Of a stretch of DNA of 64,000 nucleotides, positions 2,507 through 39,847 are shown piece by piece (position 1 is the stretch's first letter; every line of letters starts with the position of its first letter). Origin of the DNA: Vermamoeba vermiformis (lineage: Eukaryota); assembly GCA_045837725.1 (NCBI GenBank), contig JBEWZL010000126.1, positions 1 to 64,000 on the forward strand. The letters are read 5' to 3'. Made by a program: the position numbers and the translations under genes. The notes below the pieces were generated by a model. It made no database searches, was not told the origin of the DNA, and was given only the letters and a program-made list of their open reading frames with translations.

Positions 2507-3936
2507 ATGGAAAAAAATAACAAAGAGGTAAGTTATCACGTTTCAAACCGAAAACATAGGCAAAAAGCTTCGTTTTATCAATTTTAATTGCGTTTTTGAA
2601 ATTTTTCCGTTTCTAAATCCGATCAATTTTCGCAGGTCAAACGGAAGCCAGTGCCGAAGCGCAAGGGGGCCAAAAAACTTTCAAAGAAGCAGAAGAGGCT
2701 TAAAACTATGTAAGTCATGCGAAAAAATTATTTAAACCTTACTCATTAGCAAAAATTAGAACCACCAAGCGGCAGAAGGCCAGATCTGATGGTTGGGAGC
2801 CACTTACTCCCTCCCCAATTCGTTTCATTGAGACCAAAGTGCCTAGTACTGTTAAGCTTGAGCCCTTGACTGGTCACACTCCACTGGACTGCTTCAAATT
2901 GCTGTGGAGTCCGAACATTCACGAGAAATGGATTGCACAAACCAGGGCAAATGTGCCTCGTTTTCATCGAGCCCTCCGCGAAGACCACTTGATAGCTACA
3001 GGCTGGGACTATATAGGCTGCCACTTGGACTTTATCGTGGACCCTCATGATGCTTTGAAAGACCACTGGACTTACAAGGACTACCTTCCAGGACGTGACA
3101 TCATGTTGGATCTGCATGCACAGCGTGATTCAGTCGACTCTCATACTCTTGCTATGCTTTTGAGTGACAACTTCAGTACCTATGTTGACATAGGGTCCCA
3201 TGTCACTATTGACGAGATAGTTGCCCCCTCTCATATCGATAGCACAGCGGTGTCAGTCATTCCGCGAAAGCCCCACTCACATGGTATACTTGTCTGGGCT
3301 GCTGCTGTCAAACTCCTGAACCAAGCTCCATATCTGGTCCGTATATTACCCAAGACTGAAGAGTATCCTGACTGGAAGACAGAAGAGATTGTGGAACAGT
3401 TGGTTGGAGCTCTTAATCCTTCAATTAAGAGAAATTTCATCATGGACTCCTGGTTCGACAGCCTGGCCGTGCGCAAGTACCTCACCGCAAAGGGCCAGTA
3501 TTACACGTTAGGTGCACATGCAGGCAGAGACAAAGACTTCTGGGACCAAGCTAGACATGGTCTGCTTCCTCATATGTGGAGACAGTATCAAAACAACTCA
3601 ACTAAGCAGCTTGCCTCTGTCTTTTCGGATGAAGGGGTGCATCTCTGTGTGTCATCTGCGTACCGTCCCCTGCACCGTTTGAACCAAGACCTCGATAGAT
3701 GTCCTCTCTCAGAGGCTTATAAGAAGCACTTCAATGTAGTGGATCTTTTCAATCGAAACTTCTATAAGAATTTGCTTCCCCACCGGAGAATGACTGTCAA
3801 CAAGGTTTTGTTCGACTCCTACATTTTGATCGCTCTGCTCAATGCACGTGCATTGTACATGAGTCAAGATGAGGTAGAACCCTTGCCTGTTAAACAATTC
3901 ATTCTTGAGTGTCGAAACTCCATCTTTAATATGTGA
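2507..3936 (+). CDS. piggyBac-family (DDE_Tnp_1_7-like) transposase, 3 exons
   Basis: Catalytic-type motifs VTIDE, IMDSWF and VVDLFNR, plus IPRKPHSHG. Two upstream exons (MEKNNKE and basic VKRKPVPKRKGAKKLSKKQKRLKT) splice in frame into the 2839-3936 ORF. No C-terminal Cys-rich domain. Confidence 0.85.
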
Positions 3937-4069: not shown

Positions 4070-4316
4070 ATCCTACAAAGGGGATGCCTACCCTGTCCCC
4101 ATGAAGGGGATGCCTACCCCGTCCCCACAAAGGGGATGCCTATCCCATCCCCACAAAGGGGATGCCTACCCCGTCCCCGTGAAGGAGATGCCTACCCCGT
4201 CCCCACGAAGGGGATGCCTACCCCGTCCCTGCGAAGGAATGCCTACCCCGTCCCCACAAAGGGGATGCCTACCCCCTCCCCATGAAGGAGATGCCTACCC
4301 TGTCCCCACAAAGGGG
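4070..4316. repeat. GC-rich 27-bp minisatellite, about 9 copies
   Basis: Tandem unit GGGATGCCTACCCCGTCCCCACAAAGG with substitutions. Confidence 0.95.
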
Positions 4317-4624: not shown

Positions 4625-4822
4625 GGAACGCCTCCTGTTGACCAATTTTACCAGACCCTGATCTGTGCCGTGGGAACACTTGTTGTTGACCAGACCCCCA
4701 TCCACACCACAGGGACGCTCCCTTGTTGACCAAGTTTGACCAGACCCCCGTCCGCGCCACGGGGACGCCCCCTTGTTGACCAAGTTTGACCAGACCCCCG
4801 TCCGCGTCACGGGGACGCCCCT
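4625..4822. repeat. 50-bp minisatellite, about 4 copies
   Basis: Unit GGGGACGCCCCCTTGTTGACCAAGTTTGACCAGACCCCCGTCCGCGCCAC. Copies 4711-4760 and 4761-4810 are nearly identical. Confidence 0.9.
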
Positions 4823-10420: not shown

Positions 10421-11479
10421 TCACTCCACTGTGACTACAACTTTGCCGCGAGATAATCCTTCGCCAAGACACTGCATAGCCGTTTTAGCCTCTGACAAAG
10501 GAAAGAGCTTGTCAATCGACACGGCAATGTTCCCTTTCTCCACTAGATCGACTAGCTCACTCATATCTTTGTTTGGCTCGTGCGCCAGAATGCTCATTTG
10601 CTTGCCTACGCACCAAGAGATCCATTTGCTCCAAGCAAGTGTGTTCAGAATGAGCGCGACTTGTCCGCCAACAAGTACATAGCGACCATTATTCCGCAAC
10701 GCGTTCTGGTAGTTGCTAACCGAGTGATGACCAACTAAGTCTATTATGACATCATAAGGCTTGTTATTAGCGTTCATATTCGTGAAGTCTTCCTTCGTGT
10801 AGTCCACAACTTCTGTCGCTCCGAGAGATTTCATCATTTCAAATTTAGCGGCCGAGTCAACAGCAATGATTTCGCCGGCACCAAAGTGACGTGCAAGTTG
10901 AATAGTATATGTGCCTGCTCCACCACCTGCGCCGTTAATTGCCACGCGATCACCAGGACGGATCTTCGCCTGTCGAAGTGCTTGAAGTGCGACTAACCCT
11001 GCTTGCGGCAATGCAGCTGCTCGTTCAAAAGACATGCTCTGAGGTTTAGCAGTCAACATCTTCTCCGAGGCACAAGCGTATTCAGCGAGTGCACCGCCTT
11101 TCTTGCTCCACATAATGTCGCCAAAAACTTCGTCGCCAATCTTAAATTTTGTGACTTTGGGGCCAACAGCTTCGATGCAGCCGCTCACGTCAGTGCCTAA
11201 AATGAGTCTACTTGGTCGTGTGAGGCCCCACATGCGGACATAAGCGGGAGATCCGGTCAGAAATTCCCAGTCAGAATGGTTGAGGGCAACTGCGCGAACG
11301 CAGATCAGAACCTCGTCATTGACTGGATGTGGCTTGAGTACATCAGTTTTTAGCTGGAGCTGTTCCCAATTGCCATATTGAGAATACACGACAGCTCTCA
11401 TTTTCGTTACCAAACTTCGAAAAACGGATGCTGCCATAATCACTGCGCAAAAAATCGTAAATAAAGTTATTAGCGTCAA
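10421..11479 (-). CDS. NAD(P)-dependent MDR-family (quinone oxidoreductase/alcohol dehydrogenase-like) oxidoreductase, intronless
   Basis: MRAVVY, ILGTDVSG, GALAEYA, INGAGGGAGT and GKVVV. The real start is probably the MAASV or MRAVV ATG. Confidence 0.9.
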   Translation of the reverse strand: MTLITLFTIFCAVIMAASVFRSLVTKMRAVVYSQYGNWEQLQLKTDVLKPHPVNDEVLICVRAVALNHSDWEFLTGSPAYVRMWGLTRPSRLILGTDVSGCIEAVGPKVTKFKIGDEVFGDIMWSKKGGALAEYACASEKMLTAKPQSMSFERAAALPQAGLVALQALRQAKIRPGDRVAINGAGGGAGTYTIQLARHFGAGEIIAVDSAAKFEMMKSLGATEVVDYTKEDFTNMNANNKPYDVIIDLVGHHSVSNYQNALRNNGRYVLVGGQVALILNTLAWSKWISWCVGKQMSILAHEPNKDMSELVDLVEKGNIAVSIDKLFPLSEAKTAMQCLGEGLSRGKVVVTVE

Positions 11480-11810: not shown

Positions 11811-13454
11811 TTACAGCAAACAACACCGGTATGAGCTCGGCAATGTTAATTTTGACACAACTGTAGTGATGCTAAGTGCTTCTAACTGCATTGGCTCAGC
11901 TGAGTTTGAAATCGCAAACGGATACAGATCCGTACTGCTAGATGTGACGTACGCAGTCGCTGATTGAAATGTCGCACCAGTCAAATTGAGTTTCACTTCT
12001 TTGGTTTTCAAAGTCGGATTAATCAGCACAACGACCAACTCGCCTGTCTTGTTCACGAATGCAGAGGACAACACATCAGATTGGTTTGACATCGCTGTCG
12101 ATACACGCACTGCGCTTGGGCGAATGAATCGGCTAAAGTTTCCAAGGGCCCACAACATTTTGCTCGCTTCAAAATTGCCATCCGTTTTGTTCTTGTCGAC
12201 GTAAATCAACCCGTCTTTGTAGTCATAGGCTGATATTGCTGTCCACCAATGCCACGCTGAGGCACTTGCATTGACGAGATCGTTGTGAATCACGCGTGCG
12301 AGGTAGATTGCAGGTTTGATGCCTAGATCGCGATGATTGCCATTGATTTCGCCATTATTATCGCCTAATATACAATACTCTGACTGCCACAGTCTCAAGC
12401 CATTCACTTGTTTTACTTTGTGATGCAGCTTTCTTCGCACTTGAACTGCTGCATTGTACGGCGATGTCGTGAAATAGCCGTGGCCCATGATGACTTGCTC
12501 GACTGAGGGCAAATCTCCAATGAACATTGGGCCAGGTGTGAAAAACGCATCGATTTGGTTGCCCCTGCGAGGCTTGCCGTGCGCTGAATATAAAAAGTTG
12601 TATTGGCCTGCTTCCACGATGGTGATTTTAGTAGGGATCTGCTCGCGTGTGATAGCCGCGTCGAGTGCGGTGACGATGCCTGTAATGTCTTCGTTCGTGA
12701 ACGGCGTGCCTTCTTGTCCACCACCCCAATCCCATTGCGGCTCATTCGCAGGACTAAGGTAATCGAACGTCACCCCAATTTTGTTCTTGACGCCCTTCAC
12801 GACATTCACCAAGTAGTCCGCAAACGCGTCGAAGTTCTCTGTTGCCAAATTCGGTTGACCTGCTGTCGCGAACGCTTTGCCATTTTTAGTTAAGCTAACG
12901 AGAGGGCTGTTGCAAAATGCCAAAAACTTCTCGACGCCGCGATCTTTGGCAGCCTTTAAGAACCACATTTGACCGGCCTGCAGGTCCCATTCATATTCGT
13001 CGTTCTTGCCGATGAATGACTCGGCTCTGCGCCACTCGTCAGTTATTCCGCTGTTGTCGCCTTGCTGCGCACTTCCAGCTCCAAGATTGAACCTCCATAA
13101 TGAGAGGCCGATGCCGCTAGGTTGGCCTATGGAAGTAGTCTCCAGGCTAAACAGTAAATCGGCCATGGCTGTTCTCTTGGCATCAGGCCAGTGACCAACG
13201 AATTGACACGACCAAGCGTCAGATGCGCCAAAATTCTCTATTGTTTGGTACTGCTTTGACAAGTCGATTGAAATTACAGTGCTATCTTGACCTTGATTGG
13301 TGCTCGTGTCGTCGGGGCCTAGTAATGCACAGGTTAATTGAGCGACAAGTGAATTTAATTTATTGCGAATCTGGATTTGGGTTGTAAATTTGTGTTTAAA
13401 GTAATTGAATACGAAATAATTACTTACTGATATTATCTTCATTATTAATAGCAT
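11811..13454 (-). CDS. Glycoside hydrolase family 30 (Glyco_hydro_30_2-like)
   Basis: QTIENFGASDAW, IGLSLWRFNLGAGS, acid/base SPANEPQW, nucleophile WQSEYC, and GNFSRFIRP. A short intron is likely near the 5' end. Confidence 0.88.
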   Translation of the reverse strand: MLLIMKIISVSNYFVFNYFKHKFTTQIQIRNKLNSLVAQLTCALLGPDDTSTNQGQDSTVISIDLSKQYQTIENFGASDAWSCQFVGHWPDAKRTAMADLLFSLETTSIGQPSGIGLSLWRFNLGAGSAQQGDNSGITDEWRRAESFIGKNDEYEWDLQAGQMWFLKAAKDRGVEKFLAFCNSPLVSLTKNGKAFATAGQPNLATENFDAFADYLVNVVKGVKNKIGVTFDYLSPANEPQWDWGGGQEGTPFTNEDITGIVTALDAAITREQIPTKITIVEAGQYNFLYSAHGKPRRGNQIDAFFTPGPMFIGDLPSVEQVIMGHGYFTTSPYNAAVQVRRKLHHKVKQVNGLRLWQSEYCILGDNNGEINGNHRDLGIKPAIYLARVIHNDLVNASASAWHWWTAISAYDYKDGLIYVDKNKTDGNFEASKMLWALGNFSRFIRPSAVRVSTAMSNQSDVLSSAFVNKTGELVVVLINPTLKTKEVKLNLTGATFQSATAYVTSSSTDLYPFAISNSAEPMQLEALSITTVVSKLTLPSSYRCCLL

Positions 13455-19462: not shown

Positions 19463-20905
19463 TTAAAAAGTCATCGAGGAAGGAGCACTGCTGGGCTGGA
19501 GCATCGCGCCAATCTCTTTCATTGAGGGATCGGCCGGATCCTTGCGCCAACATTTCTGCATGATCTCTCGCAATAGGTCGGGGCAGTCGCTTGGAATTTC
19601 AGGCGTTAATCCTTCGTTGATGATGCGCACTGCCAATGCATGGTCTTCGCGTCGATCATGATCGTGGTGAGGAGGTTTGCCAGTCAAGAGTTCTAATTTC
19701 AATTTAATACCGCTACAAGAACTCTTTAACGCCAAACTTACCATAAACAACCATGCCAAAGCTCCATACGTCTGATTTTGTAGAAAATTCGGTTACTTGA
19801 ATGCCGGAGTCCTTTCTTTTCACAGAAAGCACTTCCGGAGCCATCCAGGGAATAGGCATCGCCTTGACGACTGTTTCAGAATTGCCTGTGGTATTTTTTT
19901 GACTTCCTGACATTCCAAAGTCACTAATCTTGCACACGCCCTTATTCAACAAAATGTTGCGGGCACCCAGATCTCGATGGACGATGTTTGCGTTGTGTAA
20001 GTGATGAAGACCCAGAGCAATGGCATGAAGCATACTGTTCATTGCTTTAGAGTCAACTGGGCCGTGATTTTTGCGATACTCTTCGAGACTGCCGTCGGGA
20101 CAGTATTCGAGGACAATAATTGGTGATTTCGTGTTCTTATCGTGCGAATAACCGTACAACTGCATAAATGAGTGAGAAAATGGCAATTAATCGGCGAAAA
20201 ATTAAATTACCTGAATAATGTTTGGATGCGGCTTGATCTTGGCCATAATTTTGATTTCTAAATGTGCGTTAGGATTTTAATAATTAGCAAATTACTCCGA
20301 CGGTACCTCGTTTGAATTCTTCTGGAGGCATTGTCGTGGCGTATTTAAGAGCAACAGTGGCTCCATTATACAGACCGAGATAGACCTTGCCTAAATAAGA
20401 AGAATTCGTTTGCGGGATCACGTGCAATTTCCAAATTACCGAAAGATCCTTGACCAATCTCGCGGTCAATCTGAATCTCGTCAGGAGATATTTCCGATGC
20501 GCCCGGAATCAGTGCCGTTGTGTTGCCTTGCACAAAGTGGATCGGCGTAGAATTTAAAACAATTTTGTCTACCAGCTTTCCAACTTCTTTGCTTCCTCTA
20601 TATTGTTGTCCACCAAACTTGCACTTGCGTAATACCTCCGCCATTTTTATAATAGCTTTAGCAGCGGGTTTGAATTTTGCGCGGTAATCTTCGCTGCGCT
20701 CAAAATGCACTTTGTATTCGTCCCAGTGTTCTTTTATATCTTCAACGCGGCTAAATATTCCTTCTAACACCTCAGCCGTTGATTTCTCGTCAAATAGCTT
20801 GTATTTTTTGACGATCTTCGTAACAGCTTCGCATTTCTCGCGGATGTAGTCGACGGCCGCAAGAGACTCTTTAAGAGCCTTCTCCATCTTCGCTGTGGTG
20901 CTCAT
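19463..20905 (-). CDS. Tyrosine-kinase-like protein kinase with an N-terminal helical domain
   Basis: GQGSFG, VALK, HRDLGARN, DFG, PIPWMAPE and SDVWSFG, spread across short introns. Confidence 0.9.
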
Positions 20906-26141: not shown

Positions 26142-29100
26142 ATGCGAACTATATATTTATCGCTATTTATTATTATTTGTATTTCTAAGGTGGAATCTGG
26201 AGGTAAGCAGCCTGATACTCGATTTGATCAAATCTCTGATTTACCTTTTTACAGCCTTTATTTATACGGTGTATCCAGATCTTATGTCGGCAGACTCACC
26301 TTACTATCAACGGAACAGCACCTTCACATTTTCAGATGCGGTTAATTTCCCTCGCAATTTTTTTACCTTGTACTCGGCACCAAACGACAGCTATATCGCA
26401 TTCCAAATTTTTGCCGAGACGATAAATGGCTTGCCTGCTGCTCCTAACGTCACTTTAATGCAAACGCCCGAAGATCAGTACATTTACAAACCGGCTGGTA
26501 AATCTGTTCTTTTATCATTATGGCCTTTCTAATGCCTGATAATGTAGGTAATTTATACTCATCCGTTGGCGTGCATTTGATTGACTCAGTAGCCTTTGCT
26601 GTAATTAATAGCGGATTTGGTCTTGGTTTAGCGTTAATTAAGGGAAATCCGGATAATAACTTGACCGAAATGAAACTAATGGCCTGGAATTGGATATTTT
26701 GGGCCGATATTCTACTTAGCAACGGCAACAGTTTCCCGGATGACCCAATTAACAACGAACTCACATCCATCGCAATCGCGCATCCAAGTACGAAGGCAAT
26801 CCTTGCAGTAATGCTTACCAACTCAGTTCAAGGAATATTTAAAATGTTATTAGCTGACGGTACGATAATAGTCCGAGTATATAAACGTACTAATTTGTTT
26901 TTTTTAGTGGATTCAACGCTTGGGTACCAATCGAGTTCCATCGTCTCCTCTCCAGACAATGTATTTACTGCTCGCCCAGCACTTGCGGCATATCCAGATG
27001 CAGGAGTCAATACCTATATTCTCGCTTATAGTTGGAAGATCTCGAAGTTCCAGTACGAGATCCTCGTTCAAACAGTCGACGACATTATGACGGTCACAAA
27101 CATTACAAATATTCCGTGGTCGACATCGTTTTTGCCGATAGACGTTCAATTAACCTATGTTGGTGAGTCCAAATTAGGAAATTTAAATTTAATTTATGCG
27201 AATATTTCTAGACCGTGCAAATACTTTAAAACTATGACGATTATTCAAACCATAGAGTAACATATAGTGCTATTAATATTCTGCTTGCATATGATTAATC
27301 TATTGAAGTGAACTAAAAATGGACATTCGATACTAAGTTTCCTTTTTAGGTAACAGCGTTATTGCGTTAACGTACCAGCTCATCAATGAGACGCACGCAA
27401 CAGTAAAACAACAATTCGTTAATATTGTCGACAAAGGCACTGTTTCACTGGTAGATCTCGCTGCCGTCGAAGATCTGGCCTTGACTTACGCCATCGCTAC
27501 GAATGTTATGCCTGACGGAAGATTAATTACGACCTGGGCTAGTAGTTCGAATACAAGTACCTTTAATGGTATAATCAGCGATTATAACAACAATACGAAT
27601 CCGCCGATCGAGTTCACGATTCCAGCAGCAGATCCGTCACTTCCCATTGCTCGACTGCAAATAGCCCCGCTCTCATCGACATCATTTGCGGTCACTCAAA
27701 TGCGCATTGGTGAGCGCTCTTCATCGTTCACGAACTACTACATCATTTCAAGTTGCGACGACGGTGTAAGAACGATGAATGAGAACTGTGTGCAGGGCAA
27801 TGCAGGCTGCGTGAACTGCATGTGCAGCAACAGCGATGGTTATTACGCCACGGGAGATTATAAGACATGCAAGACTAGTAAGTTCAGTCCACACTCTTTC
27901 GACAGATTTGAATCCGGTTCTGTTCACATTTTGGAAACTATTAGACATTTACCATCGTTATTAATATTAATATTAGTTTGCGGCGATAATATTGTTGCAG
28001 GCAATGAAACGTGCGACAATTCAAAGGATGTTAACTGCGTGGATTGTGCGTGCGCTCAAGGCTCAACTTGGAATTCTACAGGTACGCTTTAACCTGAAGA
28101 TCGTGGTGTCCGTCTATATGAGCTATTATCACTGAAGTGTAGCCTATTAAACCTGCAAAAGATCCGCGACACCTACTTGCTGACCAGATCCCGTTTTCAA
28201 CAATTTTTAACCGATGTTTTAATATAGAGTTGCTATGCACAACCATTGTTATTGACGCTGCTCCATCCAATATTCCATCCAACCACCAAGTTAGTGGCCC
28301 TACCGCAGAAGCACCGGGTGGCTGGTCCAACGATTACATAGCCATTTTTGTGGTGTGTCCGCTCGGCCTCGGTGCGGCAATATTTTTGGCTGTTTATTTC
28401 GGCAAGAAACGAAAGGCAGAACGAGAAGCAAAACAAAAAGCTGAAAAGAGTGATGCGAATCTAAATCCACGAGAGACAACCGGATCGAACTACGCAACAG
28501 TCCCGCGTGCTTATGGATCGATTCCCGCCAACGAAGTAGAGCTTCAATCGACCAATCAGGGCGGGGCAAGTGGTGCGTTGAAGAGTTCGCGAGCAGTGGA
28601 CAAACTGAACGTGCCTTATGCCGAGCTCAAGTTCTTAACGGAGATCGGTGCTGGTGCGTACGGCAAAGTATTCATTGGAGGTAATTAATCGATCCTACTC
28701 GCCACTCACTATATTATAAATGAATAAGAGACTAATAGTTTGTTATTGAATAGAGTGGCAACGAGTGAAAGTAGCACTGAAGATCAACACTTCCGCGACT
28801 GGTGCTGACTTTGAACGAGAGGCCAAACTCATGGTGTTAGTCGCATTAGTATAGCATTATCAACACCATTGTTGCAATTAATTTGAGAGGTTAATAACGC
28901 TTTACTTTGAAGTGAACTTCGACCGCATCCAAATGTGGTGCAAATGCTCGGAGTGTCCTCCGATGGTCCTTACCCCGTGATGATTCTCGAGTACTGCGAC
29001 GGCGGCAGTCTCGACACAAAGCTGTTCGACACGAAGCAAGCGTGGACAGTCGCAGAACAACTGCGCACAGTGAATGGCATTGCGAAGGGTCTGTTTCACC

Positions 29101-29622
29101 TGCACAAGAATCAGATTATTCACCGTGACATTTCTGCGCGCAACATTTTGTTGAACTATAATCAGCCAAAGATATCAGACTTTGGCTTGTCTCGCTTGGT
29201 GAGTGACACGAAGAAAGGAAGTACGACCAAATCCAACGTTGGTCCGATCCGCTGGATGTCTCCAGAATCGCTGAAATCCATGTCTTACAGTACAAAGTAA
29301 GCACCTTAATATCGAATATACGTTTATAATAATACTCTCGAAAAATTCCTGACAATTTACATTTTTCAGATCGGATGTGTGGACTTTTGGCTTGGTCATT
29401 TACGAAATCGTTGCACGTAAAGAACCTCACGCCGATGCAGATCAAATAAGCATTGGAGTGCAAATCAGAGATCAAGGCATCACTCCTGAGATACCTGAAG
29501 ACTGCGATCCGTGTTTGAAAGAATTAATGGTGCAGTGTTGGCATCTCGATCCGGAGCAGAGACCGACCATGGAAGAGATTTGCGACATATTGGACAAGTA
29601 TATGGAGAATAACAAAATGTAA
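26142..29622 (+). CDS. Receptor-like tyrosine-kinase-type protein kinase
   Basis: Signal peptide MRTIYLSLFIIICIS, large ectodomain, Cys repeats (CDDGVRTMNENC, CGDNIVAGNETCD) and TM YIAIFVVCPLGLGAAIFLAVYF. Kinase motifs GAGAYG, HRDISARN, DFG and GPIRWMSPE. Confidence 0.9.
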
Positions 29623-35546: not shown

Positions 35547-38500
35547 ATGACTCAATTCGAAGTCTTAGAGCAAGTAGAGAGATTAATTGCTGATGGTAAC
35601 TATTTATAGATTTTGGGAAATCGCTAACTAGATTATAATTTAATTAAGCCCTACATTGCTGTAATGCTGTGTTGGATCTTGGCTCAAACCAATTGACAAC
35701 TCTTCCATCATCATTATTTGCTCTCACAAGCTTGGAAGGGTTGAATCTCAGTTATAATCAATTGCCAACCCTTCCATCATTAATATCAGCTCTTACAAAT
35801 TTGCAATGGTTGGAGCTAAATTTCAATCAACTGACAACTCTTCCATCATCAACAACAGCTCTCACAAACTTGCAACGGTTGTATCTCTATTCAAATCAAC
35901 TGACAACTCTTCCGTCATCAATATCTGCTCTCACAAACCTGCAACGGTTGTATCTCTGGTCAAATCAATTGACAACTCTTCCATCATCAATATCAACTCT
36001 CACAAACTTGCAACTGTTGAATCTCTGGTCAAATCCACTGGCAACTCTTCCATCATCAATATCAGCTCTTGCAAACTTACAGCAGCTGTATCTCAGGTCA
36101 AATCAACTGACAACTCTTCCATCATCAATATCAACTCTCACAAACTTGAAACTGTTGGATCTTGGGGAAAACAAATTGACAACTCTTCCATCATCAATAT
36201 CAACTCTCACAAACTTGCAGGGATTGTATCTCAGGTCAAATCAACTGAAAACTCTTCCATCATCATTAGTAGCCCTTGTAAATTTGACAAAACTGAAGAT
36301 TGAAGATAACCCATTGAAATCACCACCATTAGCAGTTGCAAAAAAGGGACTTTTAGCAATACAAGATTTTTATGATAAAGCCTTTGAAAAAATTCAAGTG
36401 CCTCAAAAGAAGATTGTGATTGTTGGAGAAGGCCTTGTTGGCAAGACATCCCTTGTCAAAAGACTCAAGAATGTCAGGTTTTACAGTCTTCAAGGCTCAT
36501 CAAGAACAGAAGGAGTTGACATTCATAACATAGAGATATCAAAAGGCAAGTTCGTGAGTGTTTGGGACTTTGCAGGCCAAGAGCACTTCTTGTCCAGTCA
36601 CAAACTGTATTTCACCAAGAACTCAGTGTTTGTTATTGTTGTTCAGCTCATTGACAGTTATCAACAAATCAGTGATCAACTTGCCAAATGGATGTTCATT
36701 GTTCATCAATTGTGTCCTGAGAGTAAAGTAGTTGTTATTGCAACCAAGTTAGATTTAGTGAAGAAAAATGAATTGAAAGAGAAAGTCATGCAAATTGATC
36801 ATGCAATCACCACTCTACAAAGTGAACTTCCATTAAATTTACAGTTGAATCCAAATGATGCATTGAGTCCAAAATTGTTTGTGATAAGCAATGACAATAT
36901 GAAAAACATTCCAAGCATTGTTGATTTACTCAAAGGTAAATATGCCCTTTATCAGCATTAGAGTGGTTAACTTGTTGTAGTTTTAGCAAAGGAATCAATA
37001 GCAAGCTCTGTCATAGGCAGTGCTGGCATGTTAAAGCTTCTCAATGACAGCAAAGAGATGTGCATGACTGTTAAGCCATTGGCTCTGCAATCAAACTTAT
37101 CAATTCAGCATTGTATTGAAGTTCTTCATTCCTTGGAAGAGCTTGGAATGATTGTGTATCTTGAATCAAATGAGCAAGATGAAGATGCAACAGTGATACT
37201 GAATGGTGATTTGATCAGCAAAGCATTCAATCAACTCAAAGTCAAATCCAAGAGCCTCAACACTACAAGCATTACAGGATGGATTGACTACAACCTGGCA
37301 AAATCAGTCCTATCCAATGATATCAAATTCAAGTTGTTTATTGAAGTTGTTGAGCAAGCAAAGTTGATTTACATTGAAAGGAAGGGAGAAGTGAAAGATT
37401 GGAAGATATTTGTTCCTCAAATTGGCTTGAATCACAATACCACTCCATTGTATCAAAAGGAAACATTTCATTATTCAGTTGGAAGAATTTATCACTTCAA
37501 GTGCATGCTGCCTATTGGCTTCTTTGAGCACCTCACCATTCAAATGCAATTCTTTGCTAAAATCACATTGTGCAATATTTTGATATCTTCATGTGGCATC
37601 AAGCTGTTTGGTAACTCTGAAGCTGTTTACATTCAAAAAATCAAACTTGGTAGCCAATTTGATTCAGCAGTGCAACTTTTGTCTCAATCAAGCAAAGGGT
37701 AAGCCAATGCAATCCATAAATTACCAGTTGTAACAGTATGTTTAGTGCTTTAACTCTACTGCCTCAAGTCCTAGAAGCATTTGAAGAGTGCTTATTTAGC
37801 TACCTTGCTCATGAGCAAACTGTGACAAAGTTTGTGAAAAGATTGGCCATCTGTCCCTGCACCTGCTGTCAACAGAAATTCAGAGACAACAATCTAACAA
37901 TTGATCAATACCTGCCATTTATGCCAAGTGATCAGATCAGTCCAAACAGTACTCCACTTTTGACACTGTTCATTAGGTTTGTTCTCCATCAAATGTATTG
38001 CTCTCACTGACAGTCCCTGGCAGGAACAAGCGGTTTGCTGGATGTGCAGAATCAGATGCAAGTGTTCCCATCACTGATTTGCTGCCAGAAGTGGCTTTTT
38101 TCAATTGTAAGTGGCTGATAATCATCCTCAACTGACATTACCTTGTTTGAAGTGCCATTGATTCAGTTCACACACATTAAATTGAACAAGTTCAACATCA
38201 GAGGCAAGGGTGCATTTGGCACAGTGACTACAGGAACACTTCCAAATGGTCAACAAGTTGCTGTGAAAGAGATCAAAGACATTCAAGCTGCTTTCAAAGA
38301 GATCAACATACTGAGGTAATGATAATGGCCATGTTAACTCTAACTTACATCCCCATAGAATGCTTGATCACCCTTGCATCTTGAAGATCATTGGCTACTC
38401 TCGCAGTGAGTTGAACAACACAGCACACATGTACATCATCACTGAATTGCTTGACAAGTCACTCTCGCAACTCGTCCATGAATTCAAGGGCTCCCTTTCA

Positions 38501-39847
38501 ACTGATCTCATTTTTCTTCTCCCCATTGCAGTCAGCATTGCAGAAGGCATTGCACATCTTCACAGTCGAAATCCACCAATCATTCATCGAGACATCAAAC
38601 CTGACAATATAATGGTATGTTAGATCTTAAGAGATGATAAAGCAACTGACCTGAATTGATTTAGCTTGATAAAGAAATGAAAGTGAAAATAATTGACTTC
38701 GGCATTGCAAAATTGTCAACTCTTCCTTATTTGTATGAGAGACAAGTATGAATAATGACCAGTAGTAATGAAACTGAAGCACAATCTAATTGAAGTATGA
38801 CATCAGGGAACACCAGGCTATTGTGCTCCAGAAGTGATGGGACAAACTCAATACAACTCAGCTGTTGACATCTACAGGTATTTGAAAGTTTGTATTTGAT
38901 TGCCTTTATGTATCCTAATTTGTTTTTCAAGTTTTGGACGTGTTCTGATGAAGATGTGTGGTGACATGGGTCACTTGAAGCAACACAACGAATTATCGCC
39001 ACTGATCGAACAACTGCACACATTCATCACCAAGTGTGCTGACAAAGAGCCATTACATCGTCCAACAGCATTTCAGTGTGTTGATCAACTCAAAAACATG
39101 CTAGAACGAGCCACACTATTGAAACGACATCATGCACATCTCTTTGAAAACATTGGTCAGGCTAAAGAGCTGTCAAAGTAAGTATCCAAGGCCTCAATTT
39201 CTGCTCAAAGTCACTGATTTGATCATCAGAACAAAACAGCATTACTCTCCTGTCAAGGATTTGCCAACTCAAACACTGACTTGGACGTCGGCTAAGCAAC
39301 AGTTGGCAACAAATGCGTTTGCAAACAAAGATGAGCTGAAAGCACAACTGAAAACACTTCAATTGGAGATTAGAGACAATCCAGGCAATGGTGATTGTTT
39401 GCCTTTCTCGTTGATTGATTATCTGAAAGTGACCACAGACTTCAACGGTGATTGCAGCTCATTACGACAAATAATTGCAAACTACGTTCGTGCCAATTGG
39501 CAGCACTTGTCAAAGACATATCCTGACACGATTGGACCACTACTCAACACTGAAGAGAATGCGCGTGAATGGGCAGCGAAGTATCAGCGACCACAACAAT
39601 GGTGCGAAACTGAGTTTGCGAGCATTTGTGCTGTCTTTTTCAAGTACGTCAATTGCACAATTGCGTTGAATTATCGCACTGACATTTCACCAGGGTACGA
39701 GTGGAGATCTTTGTGATGACTGCACATCACTCGCTTGAACGCATCGTGTTCGAGCCCGTTAACATGGACTACCTGCCGACCATTCGCCTTGCTTACGTGA
39801 ACAACAATCATTACGTCTCTGTGTGGCCAGTTGATGATGACGAATGA
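35547..39847 (+). CDS. Roco protein: LRR-ROC-COR-kinase with a C-terminal OTU-like domain
   Basis: 23-aa LRRs. ROC motifs GEGLVGKTS, RTEG, WDFAGQ and ATKLD. Kinase motifs GKGAFG, VAVKE, HRDIKPDN, DFG and GTPGYCAPE. OTU-like PGNGDCLPFS..W..IRLAYVNNNHYVSV. Confidence 0.9.
35669..36320 (+). repeat. 69-bp coding tandem repeat (LRR units)
   Basis: About 9-10 near-identical units containing ...ACAACTCTTCCATCATCAATATCA(G/A)CTCTCACAAACTTGCA... Confidence 0.95.

Follow-up and report, generated by a model that had tools for sequence, protein, structure and literature searches.

Positions 1 to 64,000 of the Vermamoeba vermiformis contig JBEWZL010000126.1, a stretch of 64 kb that is referred to here as the window, contain on their forward strand a Roco-type gene in which an array of nine tandem leucine-rich repeats (LRRs) is followed by a Roc GTPase domain. 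The repeats share a common scaffold and differ from each other mainly at four positions of their beta-strand half (x3, x5, x7 and x8), where an excess of amino-acid change beyond synonymous change is likely, although not proven. We would give roughly even chances to the interpretation that the gene is an intact eukaryotic signalling gene of the Roco family and that its LRR domain is an adaptively shaped sensor face, the type of its partner being left uncommitted. Roco LRRs with variable faces are already known in brown-algal and bacterial Roco proteins, and the gene is a candidate sensor, not a new system.

Variation in the repeat array

Tandem Repeats Finder (TRF) detects a single tandem array in the window (35684-36265, period 69, 8.4 copies, 81% matches, 0% indels, score 716). 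In the frame of the open reading frame (ORF) 35669-36961 this array reads as nine 23-codon LRR units followed by a degenerate cap unit (Table 1). The units, all of which lie inside exon 2 of the gene model, have the form x3-L-x5-L-x7-x8-N-x-L-t-t-L-P-s-S-i-s-x-L-t-N-L-x2, and their positions are given in the register L1-x2-x3-L4-x5-L6-x7-x8-N9 (LxxLxLxxN). The eight xxLxLxxN strings listed in a preliminary description of this DNA (EGLNLSYN ... QGLYLRSN) are all present, in the order given there, and are all different. The LRR array of that description is also recovered, as nine 69-bp units and a cap, but its "near-identical DNA repeats" and "almost invariant" scaffold are overstated: the DNA identity between units has a mean of 0.79 (range 0.65-0.93), their amino-acid identity a mean of 0.68 (0.74 for the inner six units), and 28 of the 57 nucleotide positions of the scaffold are not the same in all units. 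The near-invariant part is limited to a 24-nt core with 0-3 mismatches in eight of the nine units. All eight matches to this core in the 64-kb window lie inside the array, where chance would give none, and the window contains no copy outside it. Pairs of units that carry the same residue use the identical codon in 158 of 245 cases (0.64) in the beta-strand half and in 265 of 321 cases (0.83) in the rest of the unit, against 0.33 and 0.31, respectively, predicted from codon usage in the rest of the gene. This codon sharing goes beyond residue constraint and codon bias, and the units are therefore either young or homogenised by conversion.

The differences between units are concentrated in few codons. 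The mean pairwise difference is 0.449 per nucleotide in codons x3, x5, x7 and x8 versus 0.164 in the other 19 codons, and the inner units 3-8 give 0.433 versus 0.122. Ranked by mean non-synonymous difference, the first four codons are x7 (1.55), x3 (1.25), x5 (0.94) and x8 (0.91); position 19 (0.90), which nearly ties with x8, and x2 (0.78) come next. The chance that exactly x3, x5, x7 and x8 are the top four of 23 positions is 1 in 8855. The AlphaFold model of the LRR part (predicted local distance difference test score, pLDDT, 83-96 over residues 1-200) has its strands at x3-L4-x5 in every unit, so that the variable positions are on or beside the strand and correspond to LRR beta-strand positions, as had been proposed. 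The textbook location of these residues is the concave face of the LRR, with which the strand placement agrees. Two other sources of variation were considered. Targeted adenine-specific hypermutation of the retroelement kind was set aside, as the changes among the variable codons are ordinary, involve one or two bases and affect every base; somatic assembly from cassettes was dropped, no cassette being present in the 64-kb window.

An excess of non-synonymous change at the exposed positions, in keeping with the hypervariable concave face of the preliminary description, is seen by maximum likelihood (ML) and by parsimony across the nine units of this single array. Nei-Gojobori (NG86) averages over the nine units give non-synonymous (dN) and synonymous (dS) values of 0.80 and 0.37 at x3/x5/x7/x8, a ratio of 2.2, and of 0.11 and 0.34 in the scaffold (17 codons outside x2-x10). 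Partitioned codon ML, with a fixed tree of the nine units, shared branch lengths and a separate dN/dS ratio (omega) for each partition, estimates an omega of 6.7 at x3/x5/x7/x8 and of 0.57 in the scaffold; against omega = 1, twice the log-likelihood difference is 24.7 (nominal p 7e-7). The a-priori set x2, x3, x5, x7 and x8 behaves similarly (omega 5.65, scaffold 0.51, p 2.4e-6), and so does a model in which the beta-strand half has its own synonymous rate (r = 1.26; omega 5.8, scaffold 0.58, p 2.2e-5). Such a value of r indicates little difference in age between the interleaved L4, L6, N9 and L11 codons and the remaining ones, which argues against old differences surviving in a homogenised scaffold. 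On the same tree, parsimony assigns 22.5 non-synonymous and 3.5 synonymous changes to the four codons (binomial p 0.012 for a rate ratio of 2.2) and 23.5 and 16.5 to the scaffold. A run of iqtree with separate branch lengths for each partition gave an omega of 1.30 at x3/x5/x7/x8 against 0.58 in the scaffold; it was replaced by the shared-branch model because four codons with a tree length of their own carry little information.

Gene model and neighbouring genes

The spliced model predicted from the sequence comprises 12 exons and 11 GT..AG introns of 38-61 nt and encodes 1253 amino acids without internal stop (Table 1). Given these 11 introns of spliceosomal GT..AG type, the gene as predicted is eukaryotic. 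The order of its domains is a short N-terminal helix, nine LRRs with their cap, Roc, a COR-like region, a kinase and an OTU-like end. The start of the protein is comparable to those of the bacterial Roco proteins P0001, P0002 and P0121.

Table 1 Features of the Roco-type gene; positions are those of the window
Feature	Positions	Strand	Basis and details
Exon 1: start codon and N-terminal helix before the LRRs (MTQFEVLEQVERLIAD...)	35547..35595	+	Spliced model open from ATG; putative start
Intron 1, 53 nt, GT..AG	35596..35648	+	Donor GTAACT, acceptor AAG; frame restored on joining; predicted
Exon 2 (LRR array, cap, Roc)	35649-36935	+	Spliced model
Nine in-frame 69-bp (23-codon) LRR units	35669..36289	+	TRF; unit table; Pfam LRR_8 E 1.3e-37; AlphaFold solenoid, pLDDT 83-96
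Degenerate terminal LRR / C-terminal cap (KLKIEDNPLKSPPLAVAKKG), then linker to Roc	36290..36340	+	Unit table; end coordinate approximate
Roc GTPase domain, rest of exon 2	36380..36935	+	G1 GEGLVGKTS, G3 WDFAGQE, G4 TKLD
COR-like region	36981..37976	+	Between Roc and kinase; exon 3 36981-37698, intron 37699-37736, exon 4 37737-37976
Linker and protein kinase domain, six exons	38024..39177	+	38024-38106, 38153-38315, 38359-38614, 38665-38745, 38807-38877, 38932-39177
C-terminal OTU-like cysteine-protease region	39230..39847	+	Exons 39230-39643, 39694-39847; stop 39845-39847

The Roc domain is recognized by Pfam (PF08477, ORF residues 248-362, E 3.9e-22, score 79.1 bits with the cut-off at 27). 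Residues 2-372, which span the LRRs and Roc, are collinear with residues 228-610 of the C. tepidum Roco structure 6hlu_A (E 2.7e-37), with residues 366-752 of LRRK1 (8e04_A, E 8.1e-35) and with LRRK2 (7lht_A, E 2.3e-31), and the earlier assignment to the Roco type, with LRRs followed by Roc, is thus upheld.

The interval that separates Roc from the kinase is more difficult to place. Its alignment by hhalign to 48 Roco Roc-COR regions is weak (E 0.048-0.071) and collinear over the two exons, with template columns 214-355 followed by 397-427. Its AlphaFold model is poor (pLDDT 47.7), and the Foldseek search with this region has no row at E<=0.001; the weak Roco COR rows (6hlu_B, rank 18, E 0.016; 8e05_A, rank 19; 3dpu_B, rank 23; 3dpt_B, a COR domain, rank 37) stand among other tandem winged-helix proteins. 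Of 1.84 billion cluster representatives, only two are related to the COR-like exon, and both lie on one 2.6-kb contig.

In the kinase domain, Pfam Pkinase matches 38360-38620 (E 2.7e-12), all introns are GT..AG introns of 43-61 nt, and the VAVK, HRDIKPDN, DFG and APE motifs are intact in the spliced model; given these catalytic motifs, the predicted kinase is apparently active. At the C-terminus, the Pfam OTU family PF02338 falls short of its threshold (13.8 bits where 23.3 are required, E 0.084), and in a protein atlas 26 of the 30 named matches carry OTU, the best score being 0.93 with 193 shared features. The C-terminal model contains a Cys-type (GNGDCLPFS) and a His-type (NNNHYVSV) motif, both of which we take to be OTU motifs. 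The OTU assignment is a tentative one, a lead and not a proof. The kinase followed by an OTU-like tail may be an undescribed Roco architecture; a limited literature search combining Roco with "OTU domain" gave nothing apparently related.

Two other kinase-domain exons are present in the window, at 19716-20186 on the reverse strand and at 28911-29297 on the forward strand (Pfam PK_Tyr_Ser-Thr, E 1.4e-35 and 7.6e-35). The two share 41% identity and bear only a distant resemblance to the Roco kinase; each of them stands at the end of a run of long ORFs without Pfam match. Elsewhere, a forward ORF at 2704-3933 carries a piggyBac-type transposase domain (DDE_Tnp_1_7, E 6.9e-08), near which there are tandem repeats of 26 bp and 50 bp (4078-4316 and 4686-4822) and a short CCCTAA-like repeat (2131-2167). 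An uninterrupted ORF of 547 codons at 11814-13454 on the reverse strand encodes a family-30 glycoside hydrolase (Glyco_hydr_30_2, E 1.9e-151) and adjoins a zinc-type alcohol dehydrogenase ORF (10424-11479); unlike the Roco gene, both are intron-free. A reverse-strand ORF of 1515 uninterrupted codons (49737-54281) matches only class-3 lipase, and weakly so (E 3.3e-04). Finally, a divergent actin-like gene is found at 59475-60620 on the forward strand (Pfam Actin, E 8.3e-73); one protein is 98% identical to it and the others at most 58%, and the lineage appears to be poorly sampled.

Copies, relatives and comparison with known systems

Among public sequencing runs, the stretch is found in DNA data sets (X1-X4), with no RNA set among those listed. 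These DNA sets represent one sample, whose contigs confirm the window sequence and break inside the array. With respect to the window, the X2 contigs have variants at 36389 and 36400, inside Roc, and one of them replaces 98 nt (37713-37810) by 113 other letters, a form that is also found in a contig from organism B (X5). The X2 variants and the replaced 37712-37811 stretch suggest a second allele or a close paralogue. The organism-B contigs cover 37484-38101 only, and their joints are consistent with indels in a diverged copy rather than with splicing of the window gene. Contig depth is 1084-1321 over the inner units versus 341 in the flank, and this excess of about 3-4x would correspond to the copies within the gene's own array, with no sign of many arrays that share identical words.

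The LRR-Roc ORF was compared with proteins of near length (8000 candidates scored, 2544 of them at E<=0.001) and with longer proteins (3121); neither search returned the gene itself or any match above 55% identity. The closest proteins, P0004, P0005 and P0016, match 88-99% of the ORF at 45-48% identity and share the scaffold of the window gene (NQLSTLPSSISTLTNL). The three proteins stop where exon 2 ends, and the intron at that point is probably shared. Their LRR units number 10, 9 and at least 6, respectively. Between them, identity is 79-83% at the scaffold positions versus 8-33% at x3, x5, x7 and x8, while P0004 and P0016 are 87% identical in their Roc part (the ungapped figures for pairs that include P0005 are lowered by a one-residue indel). 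A related organism thus has a small family with variable LRR faces. A metagenome scan with alignment A1 matched at least 597 stretches and at least 379 relatives, of which 80 were kept. These 80 look distant (best-segment identity 27-56%), and the contigs of P0004, P0005 and P0016 are not among these 80 of at least 379.

Among known proteins, the prokaryotic LRR-Roc-COR proteins (6hlu; P0121, P0128, P0131) resemble the window gene in having an N-terminal helix directly before 23-residue repeats of the NQLTTLPxxIxxLTNL type, followed by a cap ("DNPL..PP") and by Roc, at an overall identity of 37-45%. The cap motif "N(P/S)..SPP" is common to P0004, P0005, P0016 and the bacterial Roco proteins. 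The spliceosomal introns, the kinase and the OTU-like domain, in contrast, belong to the window gene, and the entropy of its variable positions is 1.5-2.5 bits versus 1.1-1.7 bits in P0121. With the LRRK-type proteins (human LRRK1 and LRRK2, Dictyostelium Roco4-like) the gene shares the order LRR-Roc-COR-kinase, although its own COR is only COR-like. It differs from them by the lack of ankyrin or armadillo repeats before the LRRs and of WD40 after the kinase, where an OTU-like domain is present instead. Its LRR units are, we assume, much more alike than those of LRRK2.

The likeness to brown-algal LRR-ROCO proteins put forward in the preliminary description is substantiated by the positions concerned; these candidate immune receptors are also the closest case that has been described. 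In the parts of Zambounis et al. (2012; PMC3341825) cited here, positive selection in Ectocarpus ROCO genes is reported at sites 15, 17, 19 and 20 of GxxPxxLxxxxxLxxLxLxxNxLx, which correspond to x3, x5, x7 and x8 of the window array, so that the same four positions carry excess amino-acid change in both. Both also have N-terminal LRRs followed by Roc, and a single type of repeat with a conserved scaffold. COR is hard to detect with Pfam in either case: the COR profile PF16095 matches 18 of 111 brown-algal genes and misses 93 according to the cited sections of Teng et al. (2024; PMC11378527). Nevertheless, each brown-algal LRR is an exon of its own of 72 nt (PMC3341825), whereas the nine 69-nt units of the window gene are contained in one exon, and the LRR diversity of the algal genes is ascribed there to exon shuffling and alternative splicing (PMC3341825, PMC11378527). 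As described in the cited part of PMC11378527, the brown-algal ROCOs consist of LRR-ROC-COR only, whereas the window gene continues with a kinase and an OTU-like end. The excerpts also describe families of 9-47 genes per species (PMC3341825, PMC11378527), with gene clustering and pseudogenes in Ectocarpus (PMC3341825); the 64 kb of the window contain one copy and no stray scaffold core, and the sample contigs hint at one further copy or allele.

The comparison with fungal NLR repeats, also made in the preliminary description, is looser than was stated there, although the logic is shared. The Podospora nwd/het-e family and its relatives have WD, ANK and TPR repeats, and the passages of Dyrka et al. 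(2014; PMC4986451) used here state that "no LRR motifs were found". They define internally conserved repeats by more than 85% amino-acid identity over at least 100 amino acids, a level above that of the window array (mean 0.68, inner units 0.74), and their switch is NACHT or NB-ARC where the window gene has Roc. What both have in common is the presence of similar repeats whose binding face varies, in the fungi under positive selection and with a proposal of concerted evolution; polymorphism of fungal repeat number between strains is documented in the same passages (PMC4986451).

Alternative explanations and significance

If the gene is, as we favour with roughly even confidence, an intact Roco-family gene with an adaptively shaped sensor face, its LRR solenoid would have grown by recent tandem duplication of one 69-bp unit, possibly together with gene conversion between units, and the units would therefore still share codons. 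Point substitutions would later have accumulated at the four solvent-exposed positions faster than synonymous changes, and positive selection would have reshaped the concave face into a specific binding surface, with many Tyr, Trp, Arg, Asn and Asp residues. The LRR would act as the input (sensor) domain, a partner bound to its concave face would alter the state of the Roc-COR GTPase, and this change would be passed on to the kinase and perhaps to an OTU-like output. This coupling from LRR to GTPase to kinase is drawn from what is known of Roco proteins.

Several observations weigh against this interpretation. The simple counts are much weaker than ML, as Fisher's test of non-synonymous against synonymous changes in the four codons versus the scaffold gives p 0.054. 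The omega tests are based on nine units of 23 codons from one gene and on a tree built from the same data, ignore recombination between units and yield nominal p-values; recombination inflates omega tests of this kind. The five conserved Leu/Asn codons of the beta-strand half have a proportion of synonymous differences (NG86 pS) of about 0.56, and against that yardstick omega is only about 0.8. The scaffold omega of 0.57 does not correspond to a strong constraint either. Divergence among the repeats of one protein would moreover be evidence of surface adaptation and not of an ongoing arms race. The identity of the Roc-kinase interval as COR is weakly indicated and not demonstrated: its segment 36983-37699 matches no Pfam family, and no PDB sequence, at E<=10. 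The repeat shuffling envisaged in the preliminary description is not supported, as the 64-kb window contains neither a second array or gene copy nor spare LRR cassettes. Finally, two of the three bacterial Roco proteins examined, P0121 (26 units) and P0131 (18 units), have near-identical 23-residue LRRs with entropy only at x3, x5, x7 and x8, so that this pattern, taken earlier as a mark of diversifying receptors, is not one by itself.

Other scenarios may explain the same data. One of them, which seems rather doubtful, is that the gene belongs to a germline-encoded, fast-diversifying repertoire of many paralogous LRR-Roco genes whose units are exchanged and reshuffled by unequal crossing-over and conversion. 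The number and order of units and the residues of the concave face would then vary from strain to strain, and the receptors would recognize non-self or pathogens, as has been put forward for Ectocarpus ROCO genes. The four positions with an omega above 1 in the window array are those also selected in Ectocarpus ROCO according to the cited part of PMC3341825. A related organism has at least three paralogues (P0004, P0005, P0016) that differ in unit number and are 8-33% identical at the variable positions, two of which, P0004 and P0005, have a longest contig of identical length (271752 bp) and may be neighbours; the sample contigs also hint at a second close copy or allele (36389, 36400, 37713-37810). 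Yet the gene is a single copy in 64 kb with its scaffold core nowhere else in the window, its single-exon array makes the exon-shuffling route of brown algae unavailable, and the contig depth of the inner units matches the copies of its own array alone.

Conversely, the LRR could be an ordinary, recently amplified Roco LRR with a fixed role, either binding one conserved partner or acting as a regulatory lid on its own kinase or Roc-COR, which we consider unlikely. On this reading, the differences between units would be just the normal need of an LRR surface, whose repeats each contact another part of the partner, and the array would be striking only on account of its recent amplification. In full-length LRRK2 structures the LRR is positioned over the kinase, and in the C. 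tepidum Roco it contacts Roc-COR; both arrangements count in favour of such a role, as do the entropy confined to x3, x5, x7 and x8 over a near-invariant scaffold in P0121 and P0131 and the borderline result of the counting tests. Against it, partitioned ML yields an omega that clearly exceeds 1 even when the synonymous rate is a local one, and the paralogues of the related organism differ almost wholly at the variable positions even though P0004 and P0016 are 87% identical in Roc, which one conserved partner for the entire family would hardly explain. It is very improbable that the gene is a decaying or silent copy in which the amino-acid excess reflects relaxed constraint: nothing was found in favour of this, the 1253 codons of the model are free of internal stops and its 11 introns are canonical GT..AG introns, the motifs of Roc (G1, G3, G4) and of the kinase (VAVK, HRD, DFG, APE) are preserved intact, and relaxation would bring omega close to 1 throughout, unlike the observed 0.57 in the scaffold and about 6 in the four codons.

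Roco proteins have been studied mainly for LRRK2 and Parkinson's disease, and the ligands of their LRR domains are largely unknown. Under the favoured interpretation of an adaptively shaped sensor face, a Roco kinase with a measurable adaptive signature on its LRR face offers a tractable case for asking what the LRR binds and how the signal reaches the GTPase and the kinase. The presence of a kinase and, apparently, of an OTU-like protease on one Roco chain would tie GTPase signalling to ubiquitin signalling. If the gene turns out to be part of a polymorphic family, the idea of an immune-type Roco receptor would extend beyond brown algae, by a route without exon shuffling. A more far-reaching proposal, which has a low probability, is that of an inherited, fast-diversifying repertoire of intracellular receptors in a barely sampled eukaryotic lineage, with single-exon LRR arrays remodelled by unequal crossing-over and selected point change and wired to a kinase and a deubiquitinase-like output. 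In that case, the task that plant NLRs and brown-algal ROCOs presumably fulfil would have found a third, independent solution, again based on Roco proteins in this lineage.

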